Of a stretch of 64,000 nt of DNA, positions 13,486 through 64,000 are shown one piece after another. The position numbers were made by a program, and so were the translations under genes. The stretch's first letter is position 1; each line of letters starts with the position of its first letter. This stretch comes from Nemertoderma westbladi (Eukaryota > Animalia > Xenacoelomorpha). The stretch is taken from the NCBI GenBank assembly GCA_032718475.1, contig JAUCBJ010008172.1, positions 9,601 through 73,600 of the forward strand, given 5' to 3'. The notes under the pieces were generated by a model. It was not told the origin of the DNA. It saw nothing but the letters and a program-made list of their open reading frames with translations, and searched no databases.

Positions 13486-13511
13486 CCGCTCCCAGAAAAT
13501 GGGATTTAAGT

Positions 13512-13848
13512 CTATAAAATATAACAAATCACAGTTTCTAAAATATAAAGATACTCTAAACAGTTAGTCTTTCTTACGCAGACGGCGTTTACGCAGTTTT
13601 TTGAGGCTAGCAAGAGTCCTTTTCTCTTTGGGGCGAGCCACTTTACTAGGAGGGCTATAAATCCTGGGTGAAGGGTGCAATATGATTGCATCAGAAGGTG
13701 TAGGATTATGGTCGGGGTATCCGCCGTTTCGATATGCTTCTCCTCGAGCTGATTTTCCTCCGCTCGTAGCTGGATACGTCCATCCAAAACTCTCGCAGAG
13801 AATGGGGTTGTCTAAGTTCGATACCTTCTTAGAGATTCCGGATTTCAC
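13512..13848 (-). CDS. Possible small ORF(s) before the PPT of E2 (two overlapping open frames, one with a basic C-terminus)
   Basis: Both frames are also open in the E3 homologue (~45551-45890); no recognisable domain. Confidence 0.3.
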
Positions 13849-13955
13849 AATCGAACTGAGATAAAGACAATTCGTTTATCGCTTGGACTTGCTGTTACAA
13901 CTTACGTTTATCTGAACAAACGCAGGTTTCCTTTCTGATCTTTGTAGAATAGCGT

Positions 13956-21529: not shown

Positions 21530-22869
21530 GTTTGTTTGCACAGTTGAATGCCTACTGCTATATTACAGTCTAAGCAAGTCTAGTAATTCAGCCTTAACTG
21601 CTAGCCTAGTAATTAATTACCGATACTGCTACTCAGTGTAGCGTGATATATATAATATTAGAATACCGGTATGCTTATGGTATATATAAGTATTATTATA
21701 CAGACTAGGTTTTTCACAAAATACCTTTATATAATCTTAGCACAAATATATATATATATAATAGGCCTATCGTGGATACCGGTATGCAGTTTACACTTAT
21801 AGTATATATAAGTATAATTATTAACTAGAATTAATTACAGAATACCGGTATGATTTCAGCTTAAGTTTATGAAAATAAAGATAATAAGCCTATTGTAAAT
21901 ACCGGTATATCAATTATTTTAAATAATTGAATTTCTGAATTTTAAGGGTTACTTGGTTACTTTAACTTACTTTATTGCCGTTATTTAAGCAGTAGTCCAA
22001 CTGATATTGAGACCTAATTGTTATATGGCAGGCCTACTATTTATAAATCGTTTGAGTTGATTTATAATATATATATACCCGTTTAATGGGTTTTGTCAAT
22101 GTTTGAAATAAATGTTATTATTTCTGGGGGAGTCACTACACATAAGCTGTGCGCTCTCAGTGGAGTGCTACTTGTTAGACACTAAAACAAATAATTCTAA
22201 TTTACCTAAGTTACTTAATACTACAAATTACGTACAATTCGGGTTGAGATTACAATCTCTAAATAAACACAAAAATTTAATTACAAATACACAAATACAA
22301 ATTTTTAGGGTAATTTTACAAGAAGTCTACTAACCAGCCTAACAAAGGGTTAGAATATCTGGTTATTACAACGGACAGGTTACTACGGTATTTGAAAATA
22401 ATAAGTAGTAGTAAATATACTGCGTTGTCCAGATAGGAAAATACCACCGCCTGACGACCTATAACCGTATCGCTATAGGTACTACGTTATGTATCACGGA
22501 GTGTCCCTACCTAGAAGTTAATTACCGCGGTCTACCAGAACCAACGTGCCTATTAACCACTTTACAACACAAATACACTGCCTACACACTAATTGCTTTC
22601 GGAAAGTACTGTACACTAAACCCTAAATTAGGTACAAGTACTTGTATAACAAATAATTAGTAGTTAAAAATACTTGAACAGATAAAAGAACCACGGTATC
22701 TGCCGGAGTGACCAAAGCACAAAATCTCCAGTCTTTACCTACGCCGAGCAGCCCTGATGTAGTACCGGGGTTAGTTTAACTATAACGGTATGTATAACAA
22801 ACACAATTACTGTAGGAATAAACTTGGGGATATGAATGTTGCGAATAATAGCATAAACTCTGAATAATA

Positions 22870-23445
22870 AATATTACGCTACGCGTACAAACCATTCAAA
22901 CAAAATGCAGACCAAATACTAACAGACTACTATCAAGCCTAAACAAACTACGGTATATGCAGACTCCGAAATGATTAAGTAGTATGCGTTCTAACCCAGT
23001 AGTACGACTTATTCTTTAGATGGGGGTTTACCTTACAGCTATGGCTGCCCCTACTTCCTAACCGTTCTTTATCGGACATACACTCTACACACACCGAAAT
23101 TTCCTCAAACCCAACAACAGCCAGACAACTATCCAGCCTACAAATTATCTAAATAAAATTATACGCTACCCATACAGACTACACAAACAAAGTACAGACC
23201 AAACGATGGCAGACTACTATCAAGCCTAAATAAACCACAGGACATGCAGACTCCGAAATGGTTAAGTAGTATGCGTTCTAACCCAGCAGTACGACTTATT
23301 CTTTAGATGGGGGTTTACCTTACAGCTATGGCTGCCCCTACTTCCTAACCGTTCTTTATCGGACATACACTCTACATGCACTGCAATCCGTTCAGACCTA
23401 ATCAACAGTTAGCCAACAGTCAAGCCTACAAATTATCTGTACAAT
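22870..23445 (-). repeat. Two ~300-bp direct repeats in the E2 5' leader
   Basis: CAGACTACTATCAAGCC...CACTCTACA occurs twice; same duplication in E3 (~53860-54425) and E4 (~57800-58330). Confidence 0.85.
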
Positions 23446-23703
23446 CTGAGCAGGCTTACACGCCTTCTGCTCAATACTGGCCTACAAATAAATAAAACTG
23501 ACAGAAATAGGCCTAAGTAAAATCCCAATAAAAACCAGGCGTCCCCGATTAATTATTAAGACCTACCGGTATATAATAATCAAATCGAATAATACTGCTG
23601 TACCTGCTGTAAGTACCGGTTCGGATGATCAGGCAGTCAGGCCTACAGGTTTCCGGTCGACCGGTACTTTCGACTAGATTGCTTACACCGCAATCCAGAA
23701 GCA

Positions 23704-23714
23704 ATATCTGTTAT
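23704..23714 (-). promoter_or_regulatory. Non-tRNA primer-binding site of E2, complementary to LTR position 24437-24447
   Basis: Sense ATAACAGATAT abuts the 5' LTR; no TGG; the LTR contains sense ATATCTGTTAT. Confidence 0.75.
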
Positions 23715-24888
23715 TGTTTGCGCTTTTAAGACCTTTGACAGTTTAACCTGCCAAATTAGGATGTCTTTTGGATGATATATATTCTTTAGCTTATGACGAG
23801 TATTTGATACACTACATTAGCCGAAGCCAGTCTATGCGCAATCATTCACCCGCTGGATATACCCGGGAGACTGAATTCGGAGCTTAATGATTGATGGTGT
23901 AAGCCTACCGTATTATTCGACTGATCGTAATATATAATCTCTGACAAATATTATTCACTTTCGGGAAATATTAACAGTTCCTTTAGGACGTGGCGCTCTA
24001 AATATATAAACAGAGTTATGGCTTAAACTAGATACAACGAAAAGGCTATAGATTTACGTATATGGCGCATTCTTTAGGAGATGCTTTGTTATCAGTTACA
24101 ATCATACACAATGCTGCACAATACTGCACACTAATCTGCCGACCTTCACTAAATTTGGTCACGTATAAAGAGAGCAATATACAATTTATGTCGGGCATAT
24201 GAAATAGCATTAGATTCACTTCAAACCACTTAACATAGGTCGCAATCGTTTATTTGTAACCGGTCTCTCTAACCTTTAGTATATCAAGAAGGTGGGGTAT
24301 CTGACTATTGATCAGTATTCCGATATAATATTTCATCAACCAATATAATGAATAATCGACAGTAAAAGCAGTAATATTAGTAAGATATGGTAAGTAAGTA
24401 AGATATGAATTGCATAGAATTGGTTTGATAAGATTGATAACAGATATACGTTCTATAATTAAGATTAAGCCTACTAGTGTAAAGCTAAAGAATGCTGATA
24501 TACGGAGGTGCCAAAAGCCGATGTTCTTAGGCTCTGGGCAAAAACATAACACTGAACTACTGAGTTCTGTATCCACCTCCAACACAGAGACAAAAAACGC
24601 TCTGATTGGTCAACCGAACAACGAGAGAACAAAGAAACAAAGAAATGTCGACGTGGCAATATCAGCTGTTAGCCGTCGTCATGGTAGCGACACTGTTTTC
24701 AAGAGTATCGAGCTTATTGCGTCCCGAAATTGCGGATTATGTCCTCTAAAGTACAAATACAGAAGAAATGGCTTTTATGTCCTCTAAAACACCAGTACAG
24801 TAAGGACACGGCCTTTTTATGCCCAGTAAACCAACTACAGAGTACTTTACGGGGAAAATAACCGGCTAATTACGCAAAAGCTTTTACA
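23715..24888 (-). repeat. 5' LTR of E2 (1174 bp)
   Basis: Sense TGTAAAAGCTTTTGCG...GCGCAAACA. Confidence 0.95.
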
Positions 24889-28958: not shown

Positions 28959-28967
28959 CGGATTGCG

Positions 28968-31752: not shown

Positions 31753-31871
31753 AATCGACGTGCGGAAACAAAACGCGGGATAACATTAAAATAGTAGTAT
31801 GTTTTTTGAACGTTTCATATTAAGTATTAACTGTCATTGCAAGTGTTTTCTACCGCGACACGACACAACCG

Positions 31872-41385: not shown

Positions 41386-41397
41386 GATAATAGGTAC

Positions 41398-42290: not shown

Positions 42291-42379
42291 AATAAATATT
42301 ATTAAAATGTTATATAAATATATTTATTTATAGTATCATACATTTATTATTATACACATATTTATTTTATTTATTATAC

Positions 42380-44268: not shown

Positions 44269-45524
44269 TGTTCGCGCTTTTAAGACCTTTGGCAGTTTAA
44301 CCAGCCAAATCTATATGTCTTCTAGGTTATAAATCTACTCCAGCCTATGACAAGTATTGAACACCTATAATAATTCTAACATTAGCCAAAGCCAGTCTGT
44401 GCGCGACCATTCACCCGCTGGATATACCCGGTAGACTGGATTTGGATGCTTTAATTTGATTGCGGTGCAGGCCTACCGTACTATTCGATTGATAGTTAAT
44501 ATATAATCTCTGACAAATATTATTCACTTTCGGGAAATATTAGCAGTTCCTTTAGGATGTGGCGCTCTATCTATTTAAACAGAGCTATGTCTTACACTAT
44601 ACACAACAGTATGTCTTATAGATCACCAAAGTGCATTCTTTAGGAAATGCTTTGTTACTCGGTCAAGCACACACAGACTATTGCACACAACTGCACACTG
44701 AATTGCCGACATTCACTGATTTTAATCATATATAAAGAGAATAACAACCGACATTTGTAGGGCCTATTAAGTAGCATTGAACTCACTACAAACCACGATA
44801 ATGTATGTCGCAAATTGTTATATGTAACCGGTCTCTCTAACCTTAGTGTATCAAGAAGATTGGGTTTTCGGATCGTTATCAATATTCTTCCCAATAATAA
44901 TATGTAAACGAACGATACAATTAACAACACAGTAAATAGCAGTAAATAATGCGGCGAAAAGCAGTTTACGTCAGGGTGCTTAATCAGATGCCGAGGTGCT
45001 GTACCAAAACCGAGTTAACCGAGACCGAGACCGAGTTGACCAAGATAACAGTTTGATGATCTTATAATTAAAGACGCTCTAATGTCAGAAAACATTCCCC
45101 GGCCGGTGTTCTAGGCGTGGGGGAAACGTCCGTACTGAATCCTGTAATTCTGCTGTACAGCTTTTACACAAAGAGGGAATCTCTGATTGGTCGAATGACA
45201 AAAAGCTCCACATGGATACAGCTGATAGATGTCGTCATTTTGAGCTGAGCAGAACAAAGAACCAAGGCAAGGCTCCGGGCAAGCTACACGTGTAAAGCTC
45301 AGCCATTAGCTGTCGTCATAGTAACGACACTGTTTCAAGAGGATCTAGGGCGTTGCGTCATAGAATTGCTAATCATGTCCTCTAAAGTACACATACAGAA
45401 TAAATAACTTTTATGTCCCCTAAAAACACCGGTACAGCAATGACACGGCCTTTTATGCCTGCTAAACCAACTACAGAGTACTTTACGGGGAAAATAACCG
45501 GTCAATTCCGCAAAAGCTTTTACA
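44269..45524 (-). repeat. 3' LTR of E3 (1256 bp)
   Basis: Near-identical to 54775-56002 apart from a 28-bp indel. Confidence 0.95.
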
Positions 45525-45994
45525 CCGCTCCCAGAAAATGGGATTTTAGTCTATAAAATATAAAAAATCACAGTTTCTAAAATATAAAGATACTCTAAAC
45601 AGTTAGTTTTTCTTGCGCGGACGGCGTTTACGCAGTTTCTTGAGACTAGCAAGAGTCCTTTTCTCTTTGGGGCGAGCCACTTTACTAGGAGGGCTATAAC
45701 TCCTGGGTGAAGGGTGCAATACAATTGCATCAGAAGGTTTAGGGTTACGGTCAGTGTCTCGTCCATTTCGATCTGCTTCTCCTCGAGCTGATTTTCCTCC
45801 GCTTGTCGTTGGACACGCTCGTCCAAAACTCTCGCAGAGAATAGGGTTGTCTAAGCTCGATATCTTCTTAGAGATTCAAGATTTCCCAATCGAACTGAGA
45901 TAAAGCCAATTCGTTTACCGCTTGGACTTGCTGTTATAACTTACGTTTATCTGAACAAACGCAGGTTTCCTTTCTGATCTTTGTAGAATAGCGT

Positions 45995-46850
45995 TTAACT
46001 CGTTTCGTACAACGCTCTCCTTCACCTTGATGAAGGGTTGTATCGCGTTAAACTGGGACGACCATACGGTTGAATGGTGATATTAGGTGTCCGCGTCCCA
46101 ATACGGCTAGGTAAGATGGGCGGCTAGCTAGAGCTCGCTGCCGGAGTGTTACCGATTAATTGTTAGGGTAGCACTAGATCTTTGAACAGTGAATACAGCT
46201 CGTGAGGATCCGGGATACCATCAGAATCGAAAGTCTGAGGTCTAATCAAGGAACGAGGTGGTCTGACCGAGTATTCCGGAACTATGATCGTAGGTTTACT
46301 CAAGGATCGTCTGAGTCGAGCGAGCGTAGGTGATATGTCGAACAAGTTTCGTTTTCCGTGGATGTTTATGTCTTTCCGTTTATTAGTTGGGTCTAGGGCA
46401 TTTATCGTAATAATACCAAAGACGCACGTCTGGTAGGGGAAACGCGGATGATATTTATTTGTTGTCACAATGCTTCTATCAAGAATTCCAAATATACGTT
46501 AGAGTTACCGCGTCCATTTGTCTCTCTAATGTCTTTTCTTTCGAGTCGATTTCGAATAGAATTTTCGCATTCGAATTTCAGTTTATCGTTCCGACTCCGC
46601 TGGGTAGGATATATGTTCGACATAGTCCGTATCGTGTGAATCGATAGAATGGCCAATGGTTAAGAAGTCCATATACGTACTATTACGATGCGTGTAGCGA
46701 GCGGTGAATTTTCCATAGTCCAATTCACGCGTAAGTTGCTTCGAGGAAATCGTCGGTTCTATATAACGACCATCGTCCTCCGTAGTAGTTGGACTAGCGT
46801 CGCCGCGTATCAAACTATCAACAAACGTTGATAGTAGTCTATCAACTCCG
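45995..46850 (-). pseudogene. Degraded homologue of the E2 376-aa orphan ORF
   Basis: Fragments EDDGRYIEP, FTARYTHRN, RNLFDISPTLARLRRSL, with deletions and frameshifts. Confidence 0.8.
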
Positions 46851-48499
46851 TTATATCTGCTATATATGAGTTTATTAATATTATAATGAGCTTATAATTA
46901 GGCTAGCGAGCGTCGCTGCCTACCCCAACACCTACCACATGTACGATCCTCAGCGCAAATGTATCGTCGTCGCTGTGTTTTCCGCCAACGTGTAGCTACA
47001 CCACGACAACGACACTAGCACGAGTCACTCCACTGTCCGTCCCAAAGGCTTAGATACACTTCAGGTTCTTACTGGAGAGTTAGGGTTACTTTCACAATTG
47101 CGACTCGCTACTGTAAACACACCTTAGTAGTAACATTCGCCTATAAACTCACAAATTCCACACACACAACTGTCACAAATTACACATACTCGGGCCATTT
47201 GTCCGTTAGTCAGTGCCTTCCAGAATGCCACGTTATTATTATGTATCCTTGGATACTAGCAGTGCGCTATTTATTTCTTACTCTATGCAATGGGCAAGTT
47301 TTTATTGTTCCTTTTAACTTGCTTCTAATTCTAGCGTGGGTGTTACTATGGTGACATTATGGAAAGCTAGCGGTAGAATTAGGGTAATTCCAATGCATAC
47401 AGATCTGGGATGCTATTTAATAGTAATTCTTTAATGGTCCAATATCTCGTTTATATATGATTTTATAAATTTTATCGGCTATTGACTCATACATGGGAGA
47501 TTCTCACACTCTAACACACTTAATAAGATGAATCTCCGCTCCCGTGATCTATTAATTGATGGGATTTTGGGAATGTTATAAATTGCACAGAATGACAATT
47601 TATTAAATTCATTAAAATATGAATTCAAATTTATTCCCTGAAATTTTATTATTTGATAGTGCAATTGACACAATTTGATTCCAGAGCAGGTCTGGGGACA
47701 TAGGATCCTTAATTCTATGAAAATTGTCTTTTAAGAGTATCGGTAAGTGCTACGATATCTTAATCGACTAAAATTGTTAAAGGATCTGAATTTTACAGAT
47801 TTTGATTTATAGATTTATAAATATTAAATAATTAATATTTGAGATGGGCACCAATTTATTCCAGAACTTGTCTGGGAACGTTAACCACTGATTCTATAAT
47901 TTGTCTTTCAAGTATATCGGTGGGTGCCGCGATATCTTAATCGACTAGAATTACGGATGGTCAAAAGGTTTAACAGATTTATTTGCGTTTCACGCTACTG
48001 TTAGAGGGACATCACGCTACTATATGTATTATTATATATGGTATGAGAGCAATATCGCACGAAGCAATGTCAGTGTGAAGAGGCAAGTCGTTTCCAAGGT
48101 CTACCCAGAGCTTGGTTTAGCCGAGACACGAGGATCTGAACTTTGCATTCCTAATACTCTGCTTACCAATAATACTTGAATATAGTAGGAGCTTTATTGT
48201 ACTTTAATAAGTACGGACATTTCATCTTACTGTAGTCACGTATTTATAATATGATACGGACAGTAAGGAAAGAGAAAAATAATTATTTCTCGCCGTCGCA
48301 CTAAATATATATTATAAGTAATTACGTACGTAATAAACACTAATATATTGCACTAATCTACTAAATAATCACTAAAATAACATTCTACTAAATAAAATTA
48401 AAGAAAACGATTATAATAAAATTACATAATAATACATACATAAATATAAAATAAAAACAAATATAAAATGATATAGTCACACGCCCACTCCATATGTTA

Positions 48500-51400
48500 T
48501 TACGTTATGGAGTCCCTAGATATTTGTCGGATTAGGGAAGTGGTCGTAGGAAGAGTATCTTGCCTTCCATAGTTTCCGGACAGTTTTCGGTCTCTTTCCA
48601 GTAAACATAAACGACCAGCTGGGCGATTGAGTTGTTGTGTTACTTTCTCCGCTCCCTTGGCCTGTCTAATCTCCGCCGTGGTAAGATGAGGAGGCCATTC
48701 TTCTTCTTCTTTACTTAAGAAGCCGGATCCACTTAACCAGCCTGGAGTATCTATCAGTTCTTGAGGAGTTGCTCCTCTGGAAGCAATGTCGGCTGGATTA
48801 ATTGTCCCAAGGCAATGTCTCCATTGATCTATAGTGGAGTTAATATCGTCATTATCTGAGGAGTATGGTGTTCCCTCAGTTGGGTCGTCCACCTCACTGC
48901 TCTCCACTTCCCATTCCTTTACTTGGTATACCTGTTCTTGAGGTAATCTCTCTTTGAGAGTTCTACGGGAAGGGCCAGTGAAGTACCAACCTACTCTAGT
49001 TCTTACCGCATAGGTTCGTAGTGGCTGTGGTTGAGCAGGCCATTTCTCCAATGTCTCTAGCGCCTCATGCGCGTTTTGGCCGATGAGTATTTGCACTCCA
49101 GGATAATCTGTGTGGAATCGAGGTATCTTAAGCTGCTGGATGCTCTCGTCCTCGTCCCAGTTATAAGGTTCTACTTGCGTAGTAGCGAAGTTCTTTATAG
49201 CCACCATTTTTACTGACCTTATACTTTGTTCTCCTAATTTATCCTGGGGGGTGCACAACGCACCTACATAGTAATCTGCCGTTATGGTAGATTTCCAAAC
49301 CTGCATAATTCCTGACATATTCAACTTAGTTCGGAATTTGGGTTGTCCAGCAAAGATGTCTTCGGCTAGTTCTTGATCGATGAATGTTCCTGTGCTGCCG
49401 GAGTCAAGGAGGGCGTTCACTATGTAACTTTTGTTAGGACCGTGAACTCTTACCTGCACTACAGGAAATTCTCTGATTCCTACGTTGGAAGTTGGAGGTT
49501 TCCAAGATGGTTGTCTGTCAAAGGTAGTTGGGGGGAACTCATTGTCGGTGTCCTTTTCATACGTAAGTGCTCGATACACTGCGGTATTTATTAGGTAACA
49601 GGATTCGTTGGCATCGGAGAATTCGTCCGTATAGAATCCTTCCATCTCAGATTCTTGATCAGTGTCATTTACATCACTGAATTGGACATGTAGTTCGGGC
49701 TCACTTACCTGACTCAGGTTGTTTCGTTCGAATTCACTGTGTAACAAGATGTGATGTTTCGCACCGCACTTTGCACACTTTACGTCAGAGTAACAGGTTC
49801 GCCGTTGGTTTCCTTGTCTGAGGCAATTATAGCATAACCGCTTATCCCACATGACTTCACATCTGTCTACCAGGGATTTCTTTAGGAATTCAGCACACAC
49901 ACTCAAACGGTGGGGCCTGTCGCACAGCGCACATTTTGGTTTGATGTTACTCACTCTACCTTGGGTAACGTTATGCACTCTCGTTCTTTCTTCGGGCTTT
50001 CTTCCGTGAATTCTCTTAGGAGACGTAGGAGGAGTTGTTGTTACCTGTTCTCTCCTGTCACTGGTTCGAGACTTATATTTACTTACGTCTTTATAGGTCT
50101 TGTTGTCATAGTAAGATTTTGCTGTGTCTTTCCCGCTGTCCCCTTCTTGAGAAGCTTGGCTTTCGCCGTCGTCAGTATAACACACTGGTGTTACCCTTCT
50201 CCTAGAAACGGGTTTCTCACTTACCTTATTTTCCGATGTTTTCTCTCTGGACTGCTTTATGAGTTGTAATTTTACTTCACTATCTAAGAAGGACATGAGA
50301 TCAGCCATGGTAGGGCCTCGTCGTTGCTGCTCATTCATATACAACACTTTCTTGTCCCAGCGTGTACATACTCCACCCTTTGGTAAAGTAGAGACTACGG
50401 CTCCAATAACCATGGAACTCTGATATTCATGAGACTTACCTAACCAGTCCAATTGTCTACAGATCTCCTGAATCTCATCGGAAAACTCTATAATCCCGCT
50501 ACTAAGGAACTTTCGGGGGGCTACTAATTTTGCATACAAATACTTAGCTATATTATCCTTGTTACCATACCTGATGTTTAATGTATCCCAAACTTGTCTT
50601 AATCCATTCGGATGTCCAATAAACTTTAACGCCATTAACTTGGGAGGTCCTTCCAAGCACTTGATGAGAAATCTAAGTTTCTCTCCGTTAGATAGTACAG
50701 AGTTCTGTATGCTATCTTTGTAATATTCATTGAAAGGTAACCATTTCATCTCATCTCCATTGAATTTTACGATTTCTCCCACTTTGACCGCTTGGCGGGC
50801 TTCTGTTCTAGCCATCTGACGCGTAAAGCTTTCTTGGGCCATCGTATTATTTAATATCGAATTATCGGTATATAAATTTCTCGGATAATTATCAGGTCTA
50901 TAGGGAATATCATTAACAACAGGTTCATAATCACCCTTAATAGGGTTTGCTATAGGAGTTTCTACTTCACCAGCAGTATAGATGCGTGTAGGCTCCACAC
51001 CTTGCGCATGTAATACTTCAGACCTATCAGGTTGACACAATGTTACAGGGGGTATTGGTATACCCTTTTGTATATTGACTAAGTTGTCGCGTTCTAGCGC
51101 GATACTTTGCTGCACTTCTTGCAATTCTACCCTACTTTCCCTTAATGTTCCCTTGAGTTGGTGGACAGTCTCCTGCATCTGTCCGAGCAGGAGATTCATC
51201 CCCCGCCGTCCCTCCTCTACCCACTCGACCGCCGAAGCGGGAGTCGCCAACATTGTAGCGGGCAGACGCGGGATGACGGGAGACAAATCTTTGATTTCTC
51301 TCTCGGCATCCAGGACAGGGATATTCTCATGGACTGTTCTACCGGGTACAGGCAGTGTAGTACTGTGTAAAGGGAATTTAGAGTTAAGCTCTGGAAGTAC

Positions 51401-52524
51401 AGGGGTCTCTAGCACAGGAGTGGCTTTGGGAACGACAGGCCTAATTATTTCAGGCTCATCAACTATTGCTTTTGACCGAGTCTTTTGACCTTAATAATTT
51501 GGTCTGTGGGTTCTGTACTACCTAAGTCTGTGCTAGCTAGTTGTCTTCTAACAGCTGGGGGCAAATCAGGCAATTTGTGACGGTGAGATGTTTTTCTACG
51601 CCTGCTTAGACGAGAACTATTTCCTCCGCCTTCAGGATCGGTGGTTTCGCCTTCCTCCGATGATGTGTATTCTTGGCGTTTGGGAGTAGATCGACTCATC
51701 ATCTGCATTTGACTAGCAGTTAATTGTTTATTTATGTTGTCTTGCGTCTCTTGCAGATTTTCCAACTCCAGTTGGGTAGTCTCCTCAGACGCTCTCCGTT
51801 CTGCTTCTGCCACTGCCCTTGCCTCTGCTACTGCTGCTGCCTTTCGGTCCTCTATCCGTCTTTTCTTTACTTGTTCTTCCTGGACTCTAGCGAGGCGGAG
51901 TTTTTCATCAAATTTAGCTTGGTTTGCAGCTAACATTTCCGCATCGATTGAGTCCAACACAAGCTTGGTTCCTTCACTATTAGGGCGAAGTCCAGACAGT
52001 CGTCTCCTCAACTCTTCGTCTCCTAGGAATCGCTGATAGTCTGACAGATAAATATCAATAGCGTCTCTCTTTCGCGGCTCCCCCGCTGTCACTTCGCTTT
52101 CTTCTTGAGAAGAAGTGGCGTCGGTTGATTCTTCAAAGGTTGGCCGCTCATCATAAACCGTATCCGCCATCTTCGCTCCGCGTTCGGGTGTCCGCTCAAC
52201 AGTATCCGAACTACTGGAGCTATCGGGCCGCTGAGAACTAGGTTCTTGGCTAGGAGGTTGCTGCTGTTTGATAGCTGCTTCTTGATCCCGCTTGACTTGG
52301 GCCCGAGTGCTGATGATAGACCTACGCTGTTCTACTAGCCTAGGGTCTGACACTACTACTGTAGGGATGGCCTTTCTTACAATAGTAGGTGACTTAGACT
52401 TGGATCTAGGATGTTCTATACTTTGATCTTGGTCACAGATCCTTTTAATACGCTGTCTAAGTCTAATACTCATTCTAACACTTTCTAAGAGACTATCTGA
52501 CAGTGATTGGGTTGCGTCTGACAT
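48500..52524 (-). pseudogene. gag: E3 gag-protease-remnant fusion, frameshift near 51470 and ~550-bp internal gag deletion
   Basis: ORFs 51463-52524 and 48500-51415; same knuckles, LLDSGS and C-terminal RH/INT remnants as E2. Confidence 0.88.
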
Positions 52525-54774
52525 GTTTGTTTACACAGTTGAATGCCTACGGCTATAAATACAGTTAAAGTAAGTCTAGTAATTCAGTATCACTGTTAGC
52601 CTAATAATTAATTACCGATACTGCTACTCAGTGTAACGGGGTATATATATAAAATATATTAGAATACCGGTATGCTTATAGTATATATAAGTATTATTTC
52701 AGACTAGACTTATCACAGAATACCGGTATGTAATTTCAGCACAAATATATAAAAATATATAATAGGCCTATCGTGAATACCGGTATACAGCTTACACTTA
52801 TAGTAGATATAAGTATAATTCTGGACTAGAATTAATTACAGAATACCGGTATAATTTCAGCCTAAATTTATAGAATAAATATAATAAGCCTATTGTAAAT
52901 ACCGGTATGTCAATTATTTTAGAATAATTGAATTTCTGAAATTTTAGGGTTACGTACTTAGTTACTTTAATTTACTTGTTCACCGTTATTTAAGCAGTAG
53001 TCCAACTGATTTTAAGACCTAAGTGTTGTATAACAGGCCTACTATTTTATTAATAGATTTAGTGGATTTATATGTACCCGTATGAGGGGTTTTGTTACAA
53101 TATTGAAATAGATGTTATTATTTCTAGGAAGTAATCACTACATAAAAGCTGTGTGCTCTCAGTGAAGTGCTACTTATTGGACACTAAAACAGATAATTCT
53201 ACTTCCTAAGTTACTTATTTACGAATTACTTACGATACGGGTGAGATTAATTCTCTAACTAAACACAACAAAATATTACGTACGAAATTTTAGGGTAATT
53301 TTACAGGGAAACTACAAACCAGTCTAACAAAGGGTTAGAACTTCTGGTTATTACAACGGACAGGATACTACGGTATTTGAAAATAATAAGTAGTAGTAAA
53401 TACACTGTGTTGTCCAGATAGGAAAATACCACCGTCTGACGACCTATAGCCGTATCGCTATAGGTACTACGTTATGTATCACGGAGTGTCCCTACCTAGA
53501 AGTTAATTACCGCGGACTACCAGATCCAACGTGCCTATTAACCACTTTACAACACAATACACTGCCCACACACTAATTACTTTCGGAAAGCACTGTACAC
53601 CAAACCCTAAATTAGGTAGAAGTACTTATTAAACAGATAACTAGCAGTTAAATATACTTGAACAGTTAAAAGAACCACGGCATCTGCTGGAGTGACCAAA
53701 GCACAAAATCTCCGGTCTTTACCTACGCCAAGCAGCCCGTGTAGTACCGGGGTTAATTTAACTATAACGGTATGTATAACAAGCACAATTACTGTAGGAA
53801 TAAACTTGGGGACATGAATGTTGCGAATAATCGCATAAACTCTGAATAATAAATATTACGCTACCCGTACAGAATACTCAAACAAAATCCAAACCAAACG
53901 CTGGCAGACTACTATCAAGCCTAAATAAACTACAGTATGTGCAGATTCCAAAATGGTTAGTTAGTATGCGTTCTAACACGGTAGTACGACTTATTCTTTA
54001 GAAGGGGGTTGACCTTACAACTCAAGATGCCCCAACTTACTAACTGGCACTTTATCGGACAGACTCTACACACGCCACAATCTCTCCAGACCCAACAACA
54101 GCCAGACAACAATCCAGCCTACAAAATATCTGAGTAATAACTATTACGGTACCTGAACAGACCACACAAACAAACACAGGCTAAAACACTGGCAGACTAC
54201 TATCAAGCCTAAATAAACTACAGTATATGCAGATTCCAAAATGGTTAGTTAGTATGCGTTCTAACACGGTAGTACGACATATTCTTTAGGAGGGGGTTGA
54301 CCTTACAACTCAAGATGCCCCAACTTACTAACTGGCACTTTATCGGACAGACTCTACATGCACTGCAATCCGTTCAGACCCAACAACAGTCAGAACCACA
54401 GTTCAGCCTACAAATTATCTGTACAATCTGAGCAGGGTTACACGCCTTCTGCTCAATATTAGCCTACTAGTAAATAAAACTGACAGAAATAGACCTATGT
54501 AAAATCCCAATAAAAACCAGGCGTCCCCGATTTAATATCGAGACCTACCGGTATATAATTATCAAAATCGAATAATACTGCTATACCTGTACTGCTGTAA
54601 GTACCGGTCCGGATGATCAGGCAGTCAGGCCTACAGATTACCGGTCGACCGGTACTTTAGTCTTGATCGCTTACGCCGCAATCAAGATCCTACAAACGGT
54701 TATTGTTCTTACCAGAACAATATTAAACTGTATTTATTGCCTACACTGCAATCAAGAATTTTACAAACTCTTAT

Positions 54775-56002
54775 TGTTCGCGCTTTTAAGACCTTTGGCA
54801 GTTTAACCCGCCAAATCTATATGTCTTCTAGGTTATAAATCTACTCCAGCCTATGACAAGTATTGAACACCTATAATAATTCTAACATTATCCAAAGCCA
54901 GTCTGTGCGCGACCATTCACCCGCTGGATATACCCGGGAGACTGGATTTGGATGCTTTAATTTGATTGCGGTGCAGGCCTACCATACTATTCGATTGATA
55001 GTTAATATATAATCTCTGACAAATATTATTCACTTTCGGGAAATATTAGCAGTTCCTTTAGGACGTGGCGCTCTATCAATTTAAACAGAGCTATGTCTTA
55101 CACTATACACAACAGTATGTCTTATAGATCACCAAAGTGCATTCTTTAGGAAATGCTTTGTTACTCGGTCAAGCACACACAGACTATTGCACACAACTGC
55201 ACACTGAATTGCCGACATTCACTGATTTTAATCATATATAAAGAGAATAACAACCGACATTTGTAGGGCCTATTAAGTAGCATTGAACTCACTACAAACC
55301 ACGATAATGTATGTCGCAAATTGTTATATGTAACCGGTCTCTCTAACCTTAGTGTATCAAGAAGATTGGGTTTTCGGATCGTTATCAATATTCTTCCCAA
55401 TAATAATATGTAAACGAACGATACAATTAACAACACAGTAAATAGCAGTAAATAATGCGGCGAAAAGCAGTTTACATCAGGGTGCTTAATCAGATGCCGA
55501 GGTGCTGTACCAAAACCGAGTTAACCGAGACCGAGACCGAGTTGACCAAGATAACAGTTTGATGATCTTATAATTAAAGACCGGTGTTCTAGGCGTGGGG
55601 GAAACGTCAGTACTGAATCCTGTAATTCTGCTGTACAGCTTTTACACAAAGAGGGAATCTCTGATTGGTCGAATGGCAAAAAGCTCCACGTGGATACAGC
55701 TGATAGATGTCGTCATTTTGAGCTGAGCAGAACAAAGAACCAAGGCAAGGCTCCGGGCAAGCTACACGTGTAAAGCTCAGCCATTAGCTGTCGTCATAGT
55801 AACGACACTGTTTCAAGAGGATCTAGGGCGTTGCGTCATAGAATTGCTAATCATGTCCTCTAAAGTACACATACAGAATAAATAACTTTTATGTCCCCTA
55901 AAAACACCGGTACAGCAATGACACGGCCTTTTATGCCTGCTAAACCAACTACAGAGTACTTTACGGGGAAAATAACCGGGCAATTCCGCAAAAGCTTTTA
56001 CA
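54775..56002 (-). repeat. 5' LTR of E3 (1228 bp)
   Basis: Sense TGTAAAAGCTTTTGCG...GCGCGAACA. Confidence 0.95.
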
Positions 56003-56177
56003 GATATGTTATATAATGGTATGAATACAGCAGTAAATAACAACCCAAAGACCATACAGACACCCCCCCCCCCCCAAACACTGATAGAATAATGATACCA
56101 ATAGAAAATCCCAGAACTAGAGTAACGGAAGCAACTAGCTTTCAATAGGCTACAAGAGGCATACTGCACAAGAAATA

Positions 56178-57355
56178 TGTAAAAGCTTTTGCGGATATAA
56201 TCAGTCCCCTTGCCCGCAAAGTACCGTGTGGGTGTTTTAACGGACATAAAAGTTGTTTTTCTATATGTGTGCTTTGGAGGACATGGCAAGATACAAAATC
56301 CGCAATGCGCCAAATCCTCTAGCACAGTGTAGCCTTGATGATTCAGATTACGACATCTAGCAGCTGGTTGCTGGCATGGAAACGGCCGTTGGACACATGG
56401 TTCTTTGTTCAGCTTAACAGCCAATCAGAGCGATTTTTACTTCAGATGTGGAGATATTCTACAGATCGTACTAGGCGTGTTCAGTCTTAGTGTTATAGTT
56501 TTTGTTGTTTCTATCTAGGCCAAGAACACCGGCTCTAGAGTCAATTCGTTTCAGACTTTAGAAGAAACATTAGTAGGCTTAGATTATAGAGCGTATAACT
56601 GTTATCAGTCTTATCAGCGGTCCAGCGGTACAATCTTACATTGTTATAATCTTAACCTACCGTCTTAATGCTTTTACTGTTGTTATTATTTGTATCAGTT
56701 GGTTGAATATTACTTGGAGAACATCGATAAATAACCCAAATTTCCCAATTTTCTTGATACACTACAGGTTAGAGAGACAGGTTACATATAGCGATTGCGA
56801 CTTATATTATCGTGGTTTGTAGTGAATTTAATGCTATTTGATAGGCACTACATGAGTCAATTGCTGTTCTCTTTATGTATGATAAAATTCATTGACGGTC
56901 GGCAGATTAGTGTGCAGTATTGTGCGGTACCGGTAGTGTGCATGATTGTGGCTGATAACTAAGCATTTCCTAAAGAATGCGCCTCATACGTGAATCATAA
57001 GCCTTACCTTCTTACCGTTGTGTTTAGTATAAGTCATATCTCCGTTTACCTAGATAGAGCGCCACGTCCTAAAGGAACTGTTAATATTTCCCGAAAGTGA
57101 ATAATATTCGTCAGAAATTATTTATTAACGATCAATCGAATAATACAGTAAGCTTACACTGCAATAAAATCTAAGCCCTCCGAATCCAGTCTCCCGGTAT
57201 ATCCAGCGGGTGAATGGACGTGCACTAGGCTGGCTCCGGCTAATGTTGTGTTTATTGGTATTAAATACTTGTCATATGTTAAAGTCTATTTATAAACCAA
57301 AAGACATATAAATTTTGGCAGGTTAAACTGCTAAAGGTCTTCAAAAGCGCGTACA
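56178..57355 (+). repeat. 5' LTR of E4 (1178 bp)
   Basis: TGTAAAAGCTTTTGCG...AAAGCGCGTACA, homologous to the E2 and E3 LTRs. Confidence 0.88.
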
Positions 57356-57367
57356 ATAACAGTTATA
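57356..57367 (+). promoter_or_regulatory. Non-tRNA primer-binding site of E4, complementary to 56594-56605
   Basis: ATAACAGTTATA is the exact reverse complement of TATAACTGTTAT inside the LTR. Confidence 0.78.
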
Positions 57368-57420
57368 TTATTTATTGCAGTAAGCAATAAAGTTGAAAGT
57401 ACCGGTCGACCGGTAAACCT

Positions 57421-57620
57421 GAACCGGTACTGCTGTAGGTCCGTAGGCCCAACTGCCAGAATCGGTACTGCTGTAGGTCCGTAGGCCCAACTGCTTGAAT
57501 CGGTACTGCTGTAGGTCCGTAGGCCCAACTGCTTGAACCGGTACTGCTGTAGGTCCGTAGGCCCAACTGCCAGAATCGGTACTGCTGTAGGTCTGTAGGC
57601 CCAACTGTCCTAACCGGTAC
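57421..57620 (+). repeat. 38-bp tandem repeat, about 5 copies, in the E4 leader
   Basis: GAA(C/T)CGGTACTGCTGTAGGTCCGTAGGCCCAACTGC(CA/TT). Confidence 0.9.
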
Positions 57621-59678
57621 TTCCAGTATAAGTACATTAGTATTATTCGATTTTGATTATTGTATACCGGTAGGTCTTAGTACTTAATCAGGGAACGGCC
57701 GCCCTGGTTTTTTATTGAGATTTTACTTATTTCTGTCGGTTTTATTTACATGTAAGTTAATATTGAGCAGAAGACGTGTAAGTCTGCTCAGATTGTTCAG
57801 ATAATTGTAGGCTGGACTGTTGTCGGACTGTTGTTGGGTCTGGAGAGATTGCGGCGTGTGTAGAGTCTGTCCGATAAAGTGCCAGTTAGTAAGTTGGGGC
57901 ATCTTGAGTTGTAAGGTCAACCCCCTCCTAAAGAATAAGTCGTACTACCGTGTTAGAACGCATACTAACTAACCATTTTGGAATCTGCATATACTGTAGT
58001 TTATTTAGGCTTGATAGTAGTCTACCAGCGTTTTAGCCTGTGTTTGTTTGTGTGGTCTGTTCAGGTACCGTAATAGTTATTACTCAGATATTTTGTAGGC
58101 TGGATTGTTGTCTGGCTGTTGTTGGGTCTGGAGAGATTGCGGCGTGTGTAGAGTCTGTCCGATAAAGTGCCAGTTAGTAAGTTGGGGCATCTTGAGTTGT
58201 AAGGTCAATCCCCTCCTAAAGAATAAGTCGTACTACCGTGTTAGAACGCATACTAACTAACCATTTTGGAATCTGCACATACTGTAGTTTATTTAGGCTT
58301 GATGGTAGTCTGCCAGCGTTTGGTTTGTATTTTGTTTGAGTATTCTGTACGGGTAGCGTAATATTTATTATTCAGAGTTTATGCGATTATTCGCAACATT
58401 CATGTCCCCAAGTTTATTCCTACAGTAATTGTGCTTGTTACACATACCGTTATAGTTAAATTAACCCCGGTACTACACGGGCTGCTTGGCGTAGGTAAAG
58501 ACTGGTGACTTTGTGCTCCGGTCACTCCAGCAGATGCCGTGGTTCTTTTAACTGTTCAAGTATATTTAACTGCTAGTTATCTGTTTTTAATAAGTACTTG
58601 TACCTAATTTAGGGTTTGGTGTACAGTGCTTTCCGAAAGTAATTAGTGTGTAGGCAGTGTATTGTGTTGTAAAGTGGTTAATAGGCACGTTGGATCTGGT
58701 AGTCCGCGGTAATTAACTTCCAGGTAGGAACACTCCGTGATACATAACGTAGTACCTATAGCGATACGGCTATAGGTCGTCAGACGGTGGTATTTTTCCT
58801 ATCTGGACAGCGCAACATATTTACTACTACTTATTATTTTCAAATACCGTAGTACCCTGTCCGTTGTAATAACCAGAATTCTAACCCTTTGTTAGGCTGG
58901 TTTGTAGACTTCCTGTAAAATTACCCTAAAATTTCGTACGTAGTATTTTTGTTGTGTTTAGTTAGAGAATTAATCTCACCAGTATCGTAAGTAATTCGTA
59001 GATAAGTAACTTAGGAAGTAGAATTATCTGTTTTAGTGTCCAATAAGTAGCACTTCACTGAGAGCGCACAGCTTCTGTGTAGTGATTATTTCCCAGAAAT
59101 AGTAACATCTATTTCAATATTGTAACAAAACCCCTCATACGGGTATATACATATATATATATCTATTATAAATCAACTCAAAGGTTTATAAGCGAGTAGG
59201 CCTGTCATACAACAACTAGGTCTCAATATCAGTTGGACTACTGCTTAAATAACGGTAATAAAGTAAGTTAAAGTAACCAAGTATCCCTAAAATTTCAGAA
59301 ATTCAATTATTCTAAAATAATTGACATACCGGTATTTACCATAGGCTTATTATATTTATTTCTATAAATTTGGGCTGAAATCATACCGGTATTCTGTAAT
59401 TAATTCTAGTTCATAATTACACTTATATATACTATAAGTGTAAGCTGCATACCGGTATTCACAATAGGCCTATTATATATTTATATATATTTGTGCTAAA
59501 ATTATATACCGGTATTCTGCGACAAACCTAGTCTACAATACTTATATATACTATAAGTGTATACCGGTATTCTAATATACTGTAATAAATTACCGGTACT
59601 AGGCCAACGGTCATACTGAATTACTAGACTTGCTTTAACTGTAACTATAGCAGTAAGCATTCAACTGTATAGCTAAGC

Positions 59679-62600
59679 ATGTCTGACACTAAGCAAAACC
59701 TGTCAGACAGTCTAATCGATACAACCATCTGTGACACAGATAGGAGGGTGGAGCGATTAAGAAAAGGGTTCAGCTCACCTCCTACTGAAAGAAAGGTCAT
59801 CCCTCCAGTAGTAGTATCAGACCCTAGGCCAATCCAACACCGTAGGTCTATCATCGGCACTCGGGCCCAGGTCAAACGGAACCAAGAAGCAGCTGTCCAA
59901 CAGCAGCAACATCCTAGTCAAGAAACTCGTTCCCAGCGACCCGATAGCTCCAGTAGTTCGGATACTGTAGAGCTGACCCCCGAACGCGGAGTGAAGATGG
60001 CGGATACAGCCTATTCGGATCCCCTTCTCACTCTTCCTGCCGCAGTACTAACAACGATATTGATTGCGGTGGAGGAACACCAAGTCGATTGGGCGAGAAG
60101 TAAGCGAGCGACCCAAGATAGTTATGCGGGATACGCCAGGGAAGAATTGATGTCTATTGTCGAGTCACAATGGAACTTTCCCGGACCCGGATCCCCGTTA
60201 GACTTATCTGAAGCTACCTGGGAAGACATACACAGGATGGGAGTGACTAAAGATACGATGGATCCAGCTGTTTGGAAGAGGTCGGCAGCAGGATATGTGC
60301 AGGGATTCTTCGGCTCCTTAGAGCGATTAGAAGAACAACTGTTTCGACAACCCAAAGGACCTCGAGAGCAGGAAGAGCTGCTTTATCAAGTACGCGAAAG
60401 AACCCTACGCATTAGGCTAATCCTATCAGCCTTTGAGGAAACTTCCAAAAGAAGACAGGACACGTCACTGCAAGTTGCTGTCAAGACTTGGTTCCAGCGG
60501 GTAGGTCTCAAAGTTCAAGAAACGGCCCAGTGGAAATCCCAGCTGGCTGAGCGACCAACCTATGAAGAATCAACCGATGCCACCCTTTCTCAAGTGGAAA
60601 GCGAAGTGACAGCAGAGAGACCGCGAACGAGAGACGCCATCGACATCTATCTGTCAGACTATCAACGTTTCTTAGGTGATGAAGAGTTGAGGAGACGACT
60701 GGCTGGACTTCGCCCCAATAGTGAAGGAGCCAAGCTTGTGTTGGACTCAATCGATGCGGAAATGTTAGCTGCAAACCAAGCTAAATTTGATGAAAAACTC
60801 CGCCTCGCTAGAGTCCAAGAAGAACAAGTAAAGAAAAGATGGATAGAGGACCAAAAGGCAGCGGCCATGGCAGAAGCAGAAGCGGAAAGAAAGGCGGCAA
60901 AGGCAGTGGCAGAAGCAGAACGGAGAGCGTCTGAGGAGACTACCCAACTGGAGTTGGAAAATCTGCAAGAGACGCAAGACAACATAAATAAACAATTAAC
61001 TGCTAGTCAAATGCAGATGATGAGTCGATCTACTCCCAAACGCCAGGGATACACATCATCGGAGGAAGGCGAGACCACCGATCCTGAAGGCGGAGGAAAT
61101 AGATCTCGTCTAAGCAGGCGTAGAAAAACATCTCACCGTCACAAATTGCCTGATTTGCCCCCAGCTGTTAGAAGACAACTAGCTAGCACAGACTTAGGTA
61201 GTACAGAACCCACAGACCAAATTATTAAGGTCAAAAGACTCCCTACGATAGTCGATGAGCCTGAAATAATTAGGCCTGTCGTTCCCAGAGCCACTCCTGT
61301 GCTAGAGACCCCTGTACTTCCAGAGCTTAACTCTAAATTCCCTTTACACAGTACTACACTGCCTGTACCCGGTAGAACAGTCCATGAGAAAATCCCTGTC
61401 CTGGACGCTGAGAGAGAAATCAAAGATTTGTCTCCCATCGTCCCGCGTCGGCCCGCTACAATGTTGGCGACTCCCGCTTCGGCGGTTGAGTGGGTAGAGG
61501 AGGGACGGCGGGGGATGAATCTCCTGCTCGGACAGATGCAGGAGACTGTCCACCAACTTAAGGGAACAGTAAGGGAAAGTAGGGTAGAATTCCAAGAAGT
61601 GCAGCAAAGCATCGCGCTAGAACGCGACAAATTAGTCAATATACAAAAGGGTATACCAATACCCCCAGTAACATTGTGTCAACCTGTTAGGTCTGAAGTA
61701 TTACATGCGCAAGGTGTGGAGCCTACACGCATCTATACTGCTAGTGAAGTAGAAACTCCTATAGCAAACCCTTTTAAGGGTGATTATAAACCTGTTGTTA
61801 ATGATATTCCCTATAGACCTGATAATAATCCGAGAAATTTATATACCGATGATTCGATATTAAATAACACGATGGCCCAAGAAAGCTTTACGCGTCAGAT
61901 GGCTAGAACAGAAGCCCGCCAAGCGGTCAAAGTGGGAGAGATCGTCAAATTCAATGGAGATGAGATGAAATGGTTACCTTTCAATGAATATTACAAAGAT
62001 AGCATACAGAACTCTGTACTATCTAACGGAGAGAAACTTAGATTCCTCATCAAGTGCTTGGAAGGACCTCCCAAGTTAATGGCGTTAAAGTTTATTGGAC
62101 ATCCAGATGGATTAAGACAAGTTTGGGATACATTAAACATCAGGTATGGTAACAAGGATAACATAGCGAAGTATTTGTATGCAAAATTAGTAGCCCCCCG
62201 AAACTTCCTTAGTAGCGGGATTATAGAGTTTTCCGATGAGATTCAGGAGATCTGTAGACAATTGGACTGGTTAGGTAAGTCTCATGAATATCAGAGTTCC
62301 ATGGTTATTGGAGCCGTAGTCTCTACTTTACCAAAGGGTGGAGTATGTACACGCTGGGACAAGAAAGTGTTGTATATGAATGAGCAGCAACGACGAGGCC
62401 CTACCATGGCTGATCTCATGTCCTTCTTATATGGTGAAGTAAAACTACAACTCATAAAGCAGTCCAGAGAGAAAACATCGGAAAATAAGGTAAGTGAGAA
62501 ACCCGTTTCTAGGAGAAGAGTAACACCAGTGTGTTACACTGACGACGGCGAAAGCCAAGCTTCTCAAGAAGAGGACAGCGGAAAAGACACTGACAGATTT

Positions 62601-64000
62601 TACTACGTTAACAAAACCTCAAAAGACGTAAGTAAATACAAGGCTCGAACCAACGATAGGAGAGAACAGGTTGCCAAGACTCCTCCTCAGTCTCCTAACA
62701 GAATGCACGGAAGAAAGCCCGAAGAAAGAACGAGAGTGCATCACGTTACCCAAGGTAAAGTGAGTAACATCAAACCAAACTGTGCGCTGTGCGACGGGCC
62801 CCACCGTTTGAGTGCGTGTGCTGAATTCCTAAAGAAATCCCTTGTAAACAGACGTGAAGTCATGTGGGATAAGCGGTTATGCTATAATTGCCTCAGACCA
62901 GGACACCAACGGCGAACCTGTTACTCCGACGTAAAGTGTGCAAAGTGCGGTGCGAAACATCACATCTTGTTACACAGTGAATTCGAACGAGACAACCCGA
63001 GTCAGGTAAGTGAGCCCGAACTACATGTCCAATTCAGTGATGTAAATGACACTGATCAAGAGTCTGAGATGGAAGGATTCTATACTGACGAATTCTCCGA
63101 CGCCAACGAATCCTGTTACCTAATAAATACCGCAGTGTATCGAGCACTTACTTACGAAAAGGACACCGACAATGAGTTCCCCCCAACTACCTTTGACAGA
63201 CAACCATCTTGGAAAGTTCCAACTTCCAACGTAGGAATCAGAGAATTTCCTGTAGTGCAGGTAAGAGTTCACGGTCCTAACAAAAGTTACATAGTGAACG
63301 CCCTCCTTGACTCCGGCAGCACAGGAACATTCATCGATCAAGAACTAGCCGAAGATATCTTTGCTGGACAACCCAAATTCCAAACTAAGTTGAATATGTC
63401 CGGAATTATGCAGGTTTGGAAATCTACCATAACGGCAAATTACTATGTAGGTGCGTTGTCCACCCCCCAGGATAAATTAGGAGCACAAAGTATAAGGTCA
63501 GTAAAAATGGTGGCTATAAAGAACTTCGCTACTACCCAAGTAGAACCTTATAACTGGGACGAGGACGAGAGCATCCAACAGCTTAAGATACCTCGATTCC
63601 CGACAGATTATCCTGGAGTGCAAATACTCATCGGCCAAAACGCGCATGAGGCGCTCGAGACATTGGAGAAACGGCCTGCTCAACCGCAGCCACTACAAAC
63701 CTATGCGGTAAGAACTAGAGTAGGTTGGTACTTTACTGGCCCTTCCCGCAGAACTCTGAAAGAGAGATTACCACAAGAAAGAATATACCAGGTAAATGAT
63801 TGGGAAGTGGAGAGCAGTGAGGTGGACGAACTAACTGAGGGAACACCATACTCCTCAGATAATGACGACATCTACCCACTCTTCGATGAAGAGAACACAA
63901 TCGACCTACTTACAGAAAACAAAACTTGGAAAAACCAGGTGAACCTATGTCAACTGATTCGCCCATCGGGACCCATTGATTACAATGACGAACTAAATGA
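59679..64000 (+). CDS. gag-pol: gag-pol polyprotein of E4, 3'-partial (apparently open to the window end)
   Basis: ATG at 59679 (MSDTKQNLSDSL); no stop seen in the segments I translated and no terminated + ORF in the track; knuckles and LLDSGS present; new sequence after SSDNDDI. Confidence 0.85.
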   Translation, partial: MSDTKQNLSDSLIDTTICDTDRRVERLRKGFSSPPTERKVIPPVVVSDPRPIQHRRSIIGTRAQVKRNQEAAVQQQQHPSQETRSQRPDSSSSSDTVELTPERGVKMADTAYSDPLLTLPAAVLTTILIAVEEHQVDWARSKRATQDSYAGYAREELMSIVESQWNFPGPGSPLDLSEATWEDIHRMGVTKDTMDPAVWKRSAAGYVQGFFGSLERLEEQLFRQPKGPREQEELLYQVRERTLRIRLILSAFEETSKRRQDTSLQVAVKTWFQRVGLKVQETAQWKSQLAERPTYEESTDATLSQVESEVTAERPRTRDAIDIYLSDYQRFLGDEELRRRLAGLRPNSEGAKLVLDSIDAEMLAANQAKFDEKLRLARVQEEQVKKRWIEDQKAAAMAEAEAERKAAKAVAEAERRASEETTQLELENLQETQDNINKQLTASQMQMMSRSTPKRQGYTSSEEGETTDPEGGGNRSRLSRRRKTSHRHKLPDLPPAVRRQLASTDLGSTEPTDQIIKVKRLPTIVDEPEIIRPVVPRATPVLETPVLPELNSKFPLHSTTLPVPGRTVHEKIPVLDAEREIKDLSPIVPRRPATMLATPASAVEWVEEGRRGMNLLLGQMQETVHQLKGTVRESRVEFQEVQQSIALERDKLVNIQKGIPIPPVTLCQPVRSEVLHAQGVEPTRIYTASEVETPIANPFKGDYKPVVNDIPYRPDNNPRNLYTDDSILNNTMAQESFTRQMARTEARQAVKVGEIVKFNGDEMKWLPFNEYYKDSIQNSVLSNGEKLRFLIKCLEGPPKLMALKFIGHPDGLRQVWDTLNIRYGNKDNIAKYLYAKLVAPRNFLSSGIIEFSDEIQEICRQLDWLGKSHEYQSSMVIGAVVSTLPKGGVCTRWDKKVLYMNEQQRRGPTMADLMSFLYGEVKLQLIKQSREKTSENKVSEKPVSRRRVTPVCYTDDGESQASQEEDSGKDTDRFYYVNKTSKDVSKYKARTNDRREQVAKTPPQSPNRMHGRKPEERTRVHHVTQGKVSNIKPNCALCDGPHRLSACAEFLKKSLVNRREVMWDKRLCYNCLRPGHQRRTCYSDVKCAKCGAKHHILLHSEFERDNPSQVSEPELHVQFSDVNDTDQESEMEGFYTDEFSDANESCYLINTAVYRALTYEKDTDNEFPPTTFDRQPSWKVPTSNVGIREFPVVQVRVHGPNKSYIVNALLDSGSTGTFIDQELAEDIFAGQPKFQTKLNMSGIMQVWKSTITANYYVGALSTPQDKLGAQSIRSVKMVAIKNFATTQVEPYNWDEDESIQQLKIPRFPTDYPGVQILIGQNAHEALETLEKRPAQPQPLQTYAVRTRVGWYFTGPSRRTLKERLPQERIYQVNDWEVESSEVDELTEGTPYSSDNDDIYPLFDEENTIDLLTENKTWKNQVNLCQLIRPSGPIDYNDELN

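Follow-up and report, generated by a model that had tools for sequence, protein, structure and literature searches.

The window, meaning the whole 64,000-nt stretch of Nemertoderma westbladi contig JAUCBJ010008172.1 that we analyzed, holds three related LTR elements, E2, E3, and E4. E4 starts at position 56178 on the plus strand and continues past the window edge, so that its 3′ end lies beyond the window.

12325..24888, minus strand: E2, non-autonomous Bel/Pao element; LTRs 23715-24888 and 12325-13485, 98.6% identical; target-site duplication (TSD) GACTC
44269..56002, minus strand: E3, non-autonomous Bel/Pao element; LTRs 54775-56002 and 44269-45524, 96.9% identical; TSD GATAT
56178..57355, plus strand: E4 5′ LTR, 1178 nt, TG...CA
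59673..63999, plus strand: E4 open frame of 1442 aa with DUF1759 gag and protease, still open at the window edge

The LTR boundaries of E2 and E3 are set by the 5-bp target duplications GACTC and GATAT, and a purine-rich tract (PPT) adjoins the 3′ LTR in both, an arrangement of LTRs, TSD, and PPT that is found in Bel/Pao elements. Across these three copies, the LTRs are 74-78% identical to one another. A DUF1759 gag is recognized in E2, E3, and E4 with 47-49 bits against a Pfam cut-off of 25.4, the protease match is weak in all three, and PF05380 is present in 16 of 20 homologues, as is consistent with a Bel/Pao-type Gag and protease. Searching E2 and E3 by tblastn with six full Bel/Pao polyproteins did not reveal a reverse transcriptase (RT), an RNase H core, or an integrase, and in both elements the protease joins directly to about 50 aa resembling the region that follows RNase H. 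E2 and E3 are non-autonomous derivatives. E4 may bear pol, because its long open frame leaves the similarity to E2 and E3 at exactly the E2/E3 deletion junction and runs beyond the window. Following gag-protease, E2 has a 381-aa frame (13956-15101, minus strand) with no Pfam match, and E3 has a broken counterpart of it at about 45998-46834. The leaders of E2-E4 contain 288-nt duplications (window 22859-23439), and the E4 leader has tandem repeats with a 38-nt unit (57420-57621). The leaders also share a palindrome that may be a dimer site.

57401..57414, plus strand: 14-nt palindrome in the E4 leader, possible dimer site
54640-54653: the same type of palindrome in E3
23653-23664: the same type of palindrome, 12 nt, in E2

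Other Bel/Pao sequence lies nearby.

501-11282, plus strand: E1, a distant Bel/Pao element encoding RT, Pao peptidase A17, and integrase; 3′ LTR 10734-11282; PBS outside the window
about 33600-37300, minus strand: broken Bel/Pao pol fragment, encoding Pao peptidase A17 but lacking recognizable LTRs

Tandem repeats follow the E1 integrase (window 6298-7055), and E1 has an extra 891-aa frame (7357-10032) with no Pfam match, which we take, by eye, to resemble a 3′-5′ exonuclease followed by zinc knuckles. The E1 LTR contains CAGTTATC three times, and this is like the core of the E2-E4 site described below. Around the elements, at window 25000-44000 and 11283-11990, lies other DNA in which one frame is DNA-polymerase-B-like (28152-28958) and another looks like an ATPase (30426-31169, weak AAA_14); by resemblance, this DNA may be a Polinton/Maverick-type element.

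The ICTV Belpaoviridae profile describes these elements as primed by tRNA, with an 18-nt PBS for tRNA-Arg or tRNA-Gly, and their replication as poorly understood (PMC8742986). E2-E4 resemble the profile in having LTRs of about 1.2 kb, a PPT, a DUF1759 gag, and a protease, and the Pao peptidase A17 domain is present in the neighboring E1 and in the fragment at 33-37 kb, but E2-E4 are unlike it in lacking an 18-nt tRNA PBS (PMC8742986). A preliminary description of this DNA had proposed that no TGG-starting tRNA PBS is present and that the bases directly after the LTR instead complement a site inside the LTR. The absence of a TGG-starting PBS is borne out: TGG does not occur in the 8 nt that follow the LTR in E2, E3, or E4, and no PBS-like TGG motif is common to the aligned leaders. 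The window contains no tRNA gene. The six sequences are also as that description gave them.

56594..56605, plus strand: E4 candidate self-primer end, 12 nt, 12/12 complementary to the PBS
57356..57367, plus strand: E4 PBS, directly after the LTR, not TGG-type
24437..24447, minus strand: E2 candidate self-primer end, 11/11
23704..23714, minus strand: E2 PBS
55551..55561, minus strand: E3 candidate self-primer end, 10/11
54764..54774, minus strand: E3 PBS
54693..54703, minus strand: second PBS-like copy in a duplication of the E3 leader, 10/11 to the E3 site with the mismatch elsewhere

The site, which had been placed at a homologous position about 420-440 nt inside the LTR, is found at LTR positions 442-452 in E2 and E3 and 417-428 in E4, and it is separated from the LTR end by 722 nt (E2), 776 nt (E3), and 750 nt (E4). 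In all three elements the pairing begins at the first base after the terminal CA of the LTR (offset 0), as would be needed for a primer 3′ end to pair with the first post-LTR base. At the second PBS-like copy of E3, a contig in one DNA run skips 73 nt.

How often such matches arise by chance was examined by resampling the LTRs with a first-order Markov chain, 2000 times each. A perfect match arose in 1/2000 resamplings for E2 and 0/2000 for E4; with one mismatch allowed, the counts were 17/2000 (E3), 79/2000 (E2), and 23/2000 (E4). A looser test that accepts offsets of 0-5 gave 4/200 for E2, 0/200 for E4, and, with no mismatch allowed, 172/200 for E3, in which a G.G mismatch at pair 5 leaves a perfect match of just 4 nt. 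The leaders contain matches of 10-11 nt at other places as well (offset 119 in E2, 89 in E3, 15 in E4), and match length alone is therefore modest evidence. What carries the case, in our judgment, is that the pairing starts at offset 0, that the site is homologous in place, and that site and PBS covary. Extending the duplex beyond 11-12 nt gave chance-level results in E2 (296/2000), E3 (1243/2000), and E4 (537/2000), and the extended duplex of the second E3 PBS was the sole one to fall well below this, at 37/2000. A primer built by splicing was likewise at chance level in E2, E3, and E4 (36, 50, and 140 of 200).

Next, we compared the site and the PBS among the three copies. The site differs at three positions, and at 3/3 of these the PBS carries the complementary change, as had been suggested from the sequences changing together. 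Each PBS also fits its own site best over 11 nt: 11 pairs versus 8 and 10 with the other sites for E2, 10 versus 7 and 8 for E3, and 11 versus 10 and 9 for E4. A tRNA anticodon-arm fragment as primer was set aside, since the variable PBS positions follow the LTR. The invariant core of the site overlaps a GATA-type motif, which may explain part of the core conservation.

The match could instead be a functionless relic of an old inverted repeat, for instance of the two ends of an element that was captured. The AT-rich 10-11 nt matches at other leader offsets are what such a reading would lead one to expect, and the TGTTA/TAACA core does resemble LTR end repeats, but it is hard to reconcile with compensation of 3/3 site changes at 22-26% LTR divergence, with one arm lying outside the LTR as set by the target duplications, and with flanking helices that covary as well. 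We consider a relic highly improbable, and we regard the pairing at the primer position as a real and selected RNA pairing.

The family to which these copies belong is large and varied: in one run, 15,012 DNA contigs aligned to one 3.4 kb stretch. Among E4-like contigs (443, 337, 178, and 7 contigs), no alternative letter is listed at 1% or more for PBS positions 1-12 at the E4 junction, and a one-letter loss is listed at position 12. The loose ends of E4-like contigs leave the E4 PBS at positions 9-12, and none of the 20 loose ends listed at this junction for such contigs starts with TGG. Since contigs that differ from E4 would not align here, this constancy supports the model weakly. Family contigs also skip or replace about 40-100 nt from the 3′ edge of the site (56606-56649, 55452-55550); the sequence just past the predicted cut is prone to change.

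In Tf1, according to the consulted portions of 10.1101/2022.12.06.519325, self-priming requires a three-duplex "pretzel" in which the primer-PBS duplex is joined by two further duplexes between PBS-adjacent sequence and the LTR downstream of the primer. When the PBS is held open in folds of E2, E3, and E4, two helices, B and C, form in all three.

57218..57223, plus strand: E4 helix B, 5′ strand (U5), predicted to pair with 57347-57352 with a probability of 0.70-0.97 when the PBS is held open
57347..57352, plus strand: E4 helix B, 3′ strand (LTR end, immediately before the PBS)
57152..57168, plus strand: E4 helix C, 5′ strand (U5), predicted to pair with leader 57371-57385
57371..57385, plus strand: E4 helix C, 3′ strand (leader, right after the PBS); a local hairpin is also possible

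Helix B joins LTR positions -9 to -4 to U5 about 125-135 nt upstream, and helix C joins leader positions +13 to +36 to U5 at about -168 to -204. In the three-row alignment, 96.4% of the 55 cells of helices B and C are paired and 4/20 pairs are changed on both sides; 11/500 shuffles score as high, and registers slid along the alignment are 16-42% paired. Shuffled LTRs beat the leader helix (C) in just 1, 1, and 4 of 60 trials. Unconstrained RNAalifold returned both the site/PBS helix, in which 3/10 pairs have changed on both sides, and helix B, in which 2/6 have done so, and it preferred the local leader hairpin over helix C. With the E4 LTR end taken alone, helix B is not the best partner. Programs that fold single sequences cannot draw a pseudoknot; for RNA starting at the site they give the site/PBS helix a probability of 0.67-0.98 in E2, 0.15-0.43 in E4, and 0 in E3, and for RNA from the upstream initiator described below, 0 in all three. 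The site/PBS duplex is weak (-7.6 to -11.4 kcal/mol) and spans 720-780 nt.

Copying of a primer would account for covariation between the site and the PBS, but the covariation of the flanking helices cannot arise in this way and therefore points to selection on the RNA fold. Thus, in addition to what was previously described, we find two further predicted helices, LTR end-U5 and leader-U5, that flank the PBS and covary, and E2-E4 fit the Tf1 pretzel topology as a prediction from three sequences, the structure having been drawn from the same three. Separately, the most conserved LTR block (57022-57110 and its E2 and E3 homologues) has about 55 nt that are nearly invariant, with no Rfam match and no compensatory changes. 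Up to an E value of 5, no Rfam family matches 53500-58500. We also considered an LTR ribozyme, for which there is no support.

Could the pairing be structural while another RNA serves as the primer? The site would then lie in U3, and its 3′ LTR copy would circularize the RNA or shield the PBS, with a tRNA fragment or another host RNA priming. Helices between U5 and the leader occur in tRNA-primed retroviruses too, and the TATA-like ATTATA is followed by TCA at +29 to +31 in E2-E4. However, the three PBS versions differ and each matches the LTR of its own element, which a single RNA acting in trans cannot track. The pairing also ends on precisely the base from which DNA synthesis has to start, and the leaders share no other PBS-like TGG motif. 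We think this reading unlikely.

The position of the transcript ends bears on how a primer would be made, and motif scans of the LTRs suggest three candidate readings for them.

56480..56485, plus strand: initiator-like TTCAGT in E4, 59 nt downstream of a CCAAT box; a candidate transcription start that would lie upstream of the site
56583..56588, plus strand: conserved ATTATA in E4, putatively TATA-like or a minor poly(A) hexamer

TTCAGT lies 53 nt (E2) and 51 nt (E3) after CCAAT in the other elements and 55-115 nt upstream of the site across the three LTRs. ATTATA begins 22 (E2), 23 (E3), and 22 (E4) nt before the 3′ end of the site, and a TCA is found 29-31 nt after it in all three. If ATTATA is a TATA box, the RNA would start about 10 nt after the site, and the simple self-priming model would fail. 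If instead it is a poly(A) hexamer, the host would cut at the 3′ end of the site.

This last reading would still be self-priming, with the primer 3′ end coming from host 3′-end cleavage at the end of the site and not from RNase H. The primer would derive either from a short transcript of the 5′ LTR or from the genome RNA at its 3′ end. ATTATA is among the minor poly(A) hexamers, and 22-23 nt is the usual distance from a poly(A) signal to the cut. A CA directly follows the site in E2 and E4, neither AATAAA nor ATTAAA is common to all three LTRs, and RNA that starts at the upstream initiator-like motif would have an R of about 65-125 nt. Set against this, the 30 nt past the site show no U-richness (T 0.23-0.33), the three LTRs share another hexamer, AATAAT, 482-521 nt farther downstream, and the primer would need some way to escape or lose a poly(A) tail. 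Cleavage by the poly(A) machinery is thus a possibility that we rate as low.

The reading that we prefer is self-priming with RNase H. In this model, transcription would begin at or upstream of the site, and the 11-12 nt of the 5′ LTR that pair with the LTR-abutting PBS would be the 3′ end of the self-primer. RNase H would cut just 3′ of the site to release it, and the predicted helices B and C would hold the PBS open and present it, as in the Tf1 pretzel. The primer may bear a 5′ extension of 55-115 nt, unlike the first 11 nt of the RNA used by Tf1. Plus-strand synthesis would copy the primer and thereby rewrite the PBS, and this would be why PBS changes track the site exactly. For Tf1, copying of the PBS into single-stranded DNA at the cDNA end is described in the consulted text of PMC11042837. 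Because E2 and E3 are without RT, RNase H, and integrase, these enzymes must come in trans, and a pol-bearing relative presumably packages and copies E2/E3 RNA. The proposal of Tf1-like self-priming accordingly stands in part: the flanking helices add to it, but an RNase H-dependent step carried out by the element itself does not hold for E2 and E3, which encode no RNase H. Overall, we consider self-priming in some form quite likely, and release of the primer by RNase H supplied in trans somewhat favored.

To determine whether a self-complementary PBS is confined to E2-E4, we scanned metagenome contigs with an alignment of E1 pol and took the best 80 of 501 loci. A repeat pair was present in 34 of these 80, and 16 with a readable-looking LTR end were kept; one (L049) was dropped as unclear, leaving 15 loci, for some of which the LTR length was set by hand. 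A self-complementary PBS was found in 10 of these 15 loci. In 8 (L011, L027, L030, L032, L040, L051, L058, and L074), the PBS complements the exon-exon junction across an LTR intron of the form GTAAG...AG over 11-14 nt, with 0/200 resamplings each. In 2 others (L034 and L062), the complement is contiguous, 12 nt in one (0/200) and 10 nt in the other (1/200). A TGG within 8 nt was present in 2/15 loci, and 3/15 had neither TGG nor complement. In the self-complementary loci, pairing starts 2-4 nt after the LTR and the loop is 87-203 nt. These 10 distant loci are like E2-E4 in being Bel/Pao, having no TGG, and having a PBS that pairs with LTR-derived RNA over 10-14 nt, and unlike them in that 8/10 need an intron removed, whereas the E2-E4 site is contiguous, with an offset of 0 and a loop of 720-780 nt. 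The conserved LTR motif of E2-E4 has 0 matches in the metagenome contigs.

On a tree of 77 rows built by a quick method, the 8 splice-junction loci spread over several branches, and many of their contigs may share hosts; E1 sits on a long branch, and E2-E4, having no RT in the window, were not placed. It had been suggested that the E2-E4 lineage acquired self-priming, and this is now doubtful, since 10/15 readable distant Bel/Pao loci, on several branches, also have a self-complementary PBS. In the splice-junction loci the pre-intron part is only 4-7 nt and no TATA is shared upstream, so that their primers are probably 5′-extended; for E2-E4, self-priming would therefore stay compatible with transcripts that start upstream of the site. 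We tentatively propose that tRNA-free priming is a main, possibly ancestral, Bel/Pao mode, a view for which the odds are somewhat below even. Primers would come from a pretzel-held contiguous site (about 750 nt away), from a junction made by splicing, or from cleavage at a poly(A) signal, and the process would work in trans for the RT-less E2 and E3.

Among known systems, the closest are the Tf1/sushi Ty3/gypsy chromoviruses (among them Tf1/Tf2, Tj1, and Tosmo), which, in the consulted portions of 10.1101/2022.12.06.519325 and PMC4600332, have a PBS of about 11 nt complementary to their own LTR and no tRNA site, as do E2-E4. In Tf1, sequence next to the PBS forms two additional duplexes with U5 (same sources, same portions), and such duplexes are predicted in E2-E4. 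The elements differ from Tf1 in having a Bel/Pao gag and 720-780 nt from the primer end to the PBS, and in that the primer is the RNA 5′ end in Tf1 and is only a candidate for that end in E2-E4; E2 and E3 also have no RNase H of their own. A chromovirus pol with a chromodomain integrase was not found in E2 and E3, and their gag is of Bel/Pao type, so they fall outside the Tf1/sushi group. Outside that group, self-primers have been predicted in plant Tcn1 chromoviruses and in TAR (Houba, Osr-1) Ty1/copia elements (PMC6317226, in the part consulted). By the rule given there, an LTR complement of at least 10 bp located 0-5 bp after the LTR, E2 and E4 match perfectly and E3 with one mismatch. Tcn1 and TAR belong to other superfamilies, and the part consulted of PMC6317226 is a plant survey, plants being without Bel/Pao.

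No report of Bel/Pao self-priming is present in the titles and abstract openings searched, and the ICTV profile gives tRNA priming; in this respect the preliminary description is supported. The consulted parts of PMC6317226, PMC3601003, PMC4600332, PMC3286476, and PMC8220671 contain no Bel/Pao self-priming, and PBS and tRNA terms do not occur in the consulted parts of the Bel/Pao survey PMC3118150 or the Sinbad paper PMC554778.

The self-priming model predicts exact RNA ends. If it is correct, the Tf1 solution, together with its three-helix scaffold, would exist in a third LTR superfamily, and the failure of tRNA-based PBS annotation on such elements would be accounted for. Elements that prime themselves in this way would also escape control by tRNA fragments.
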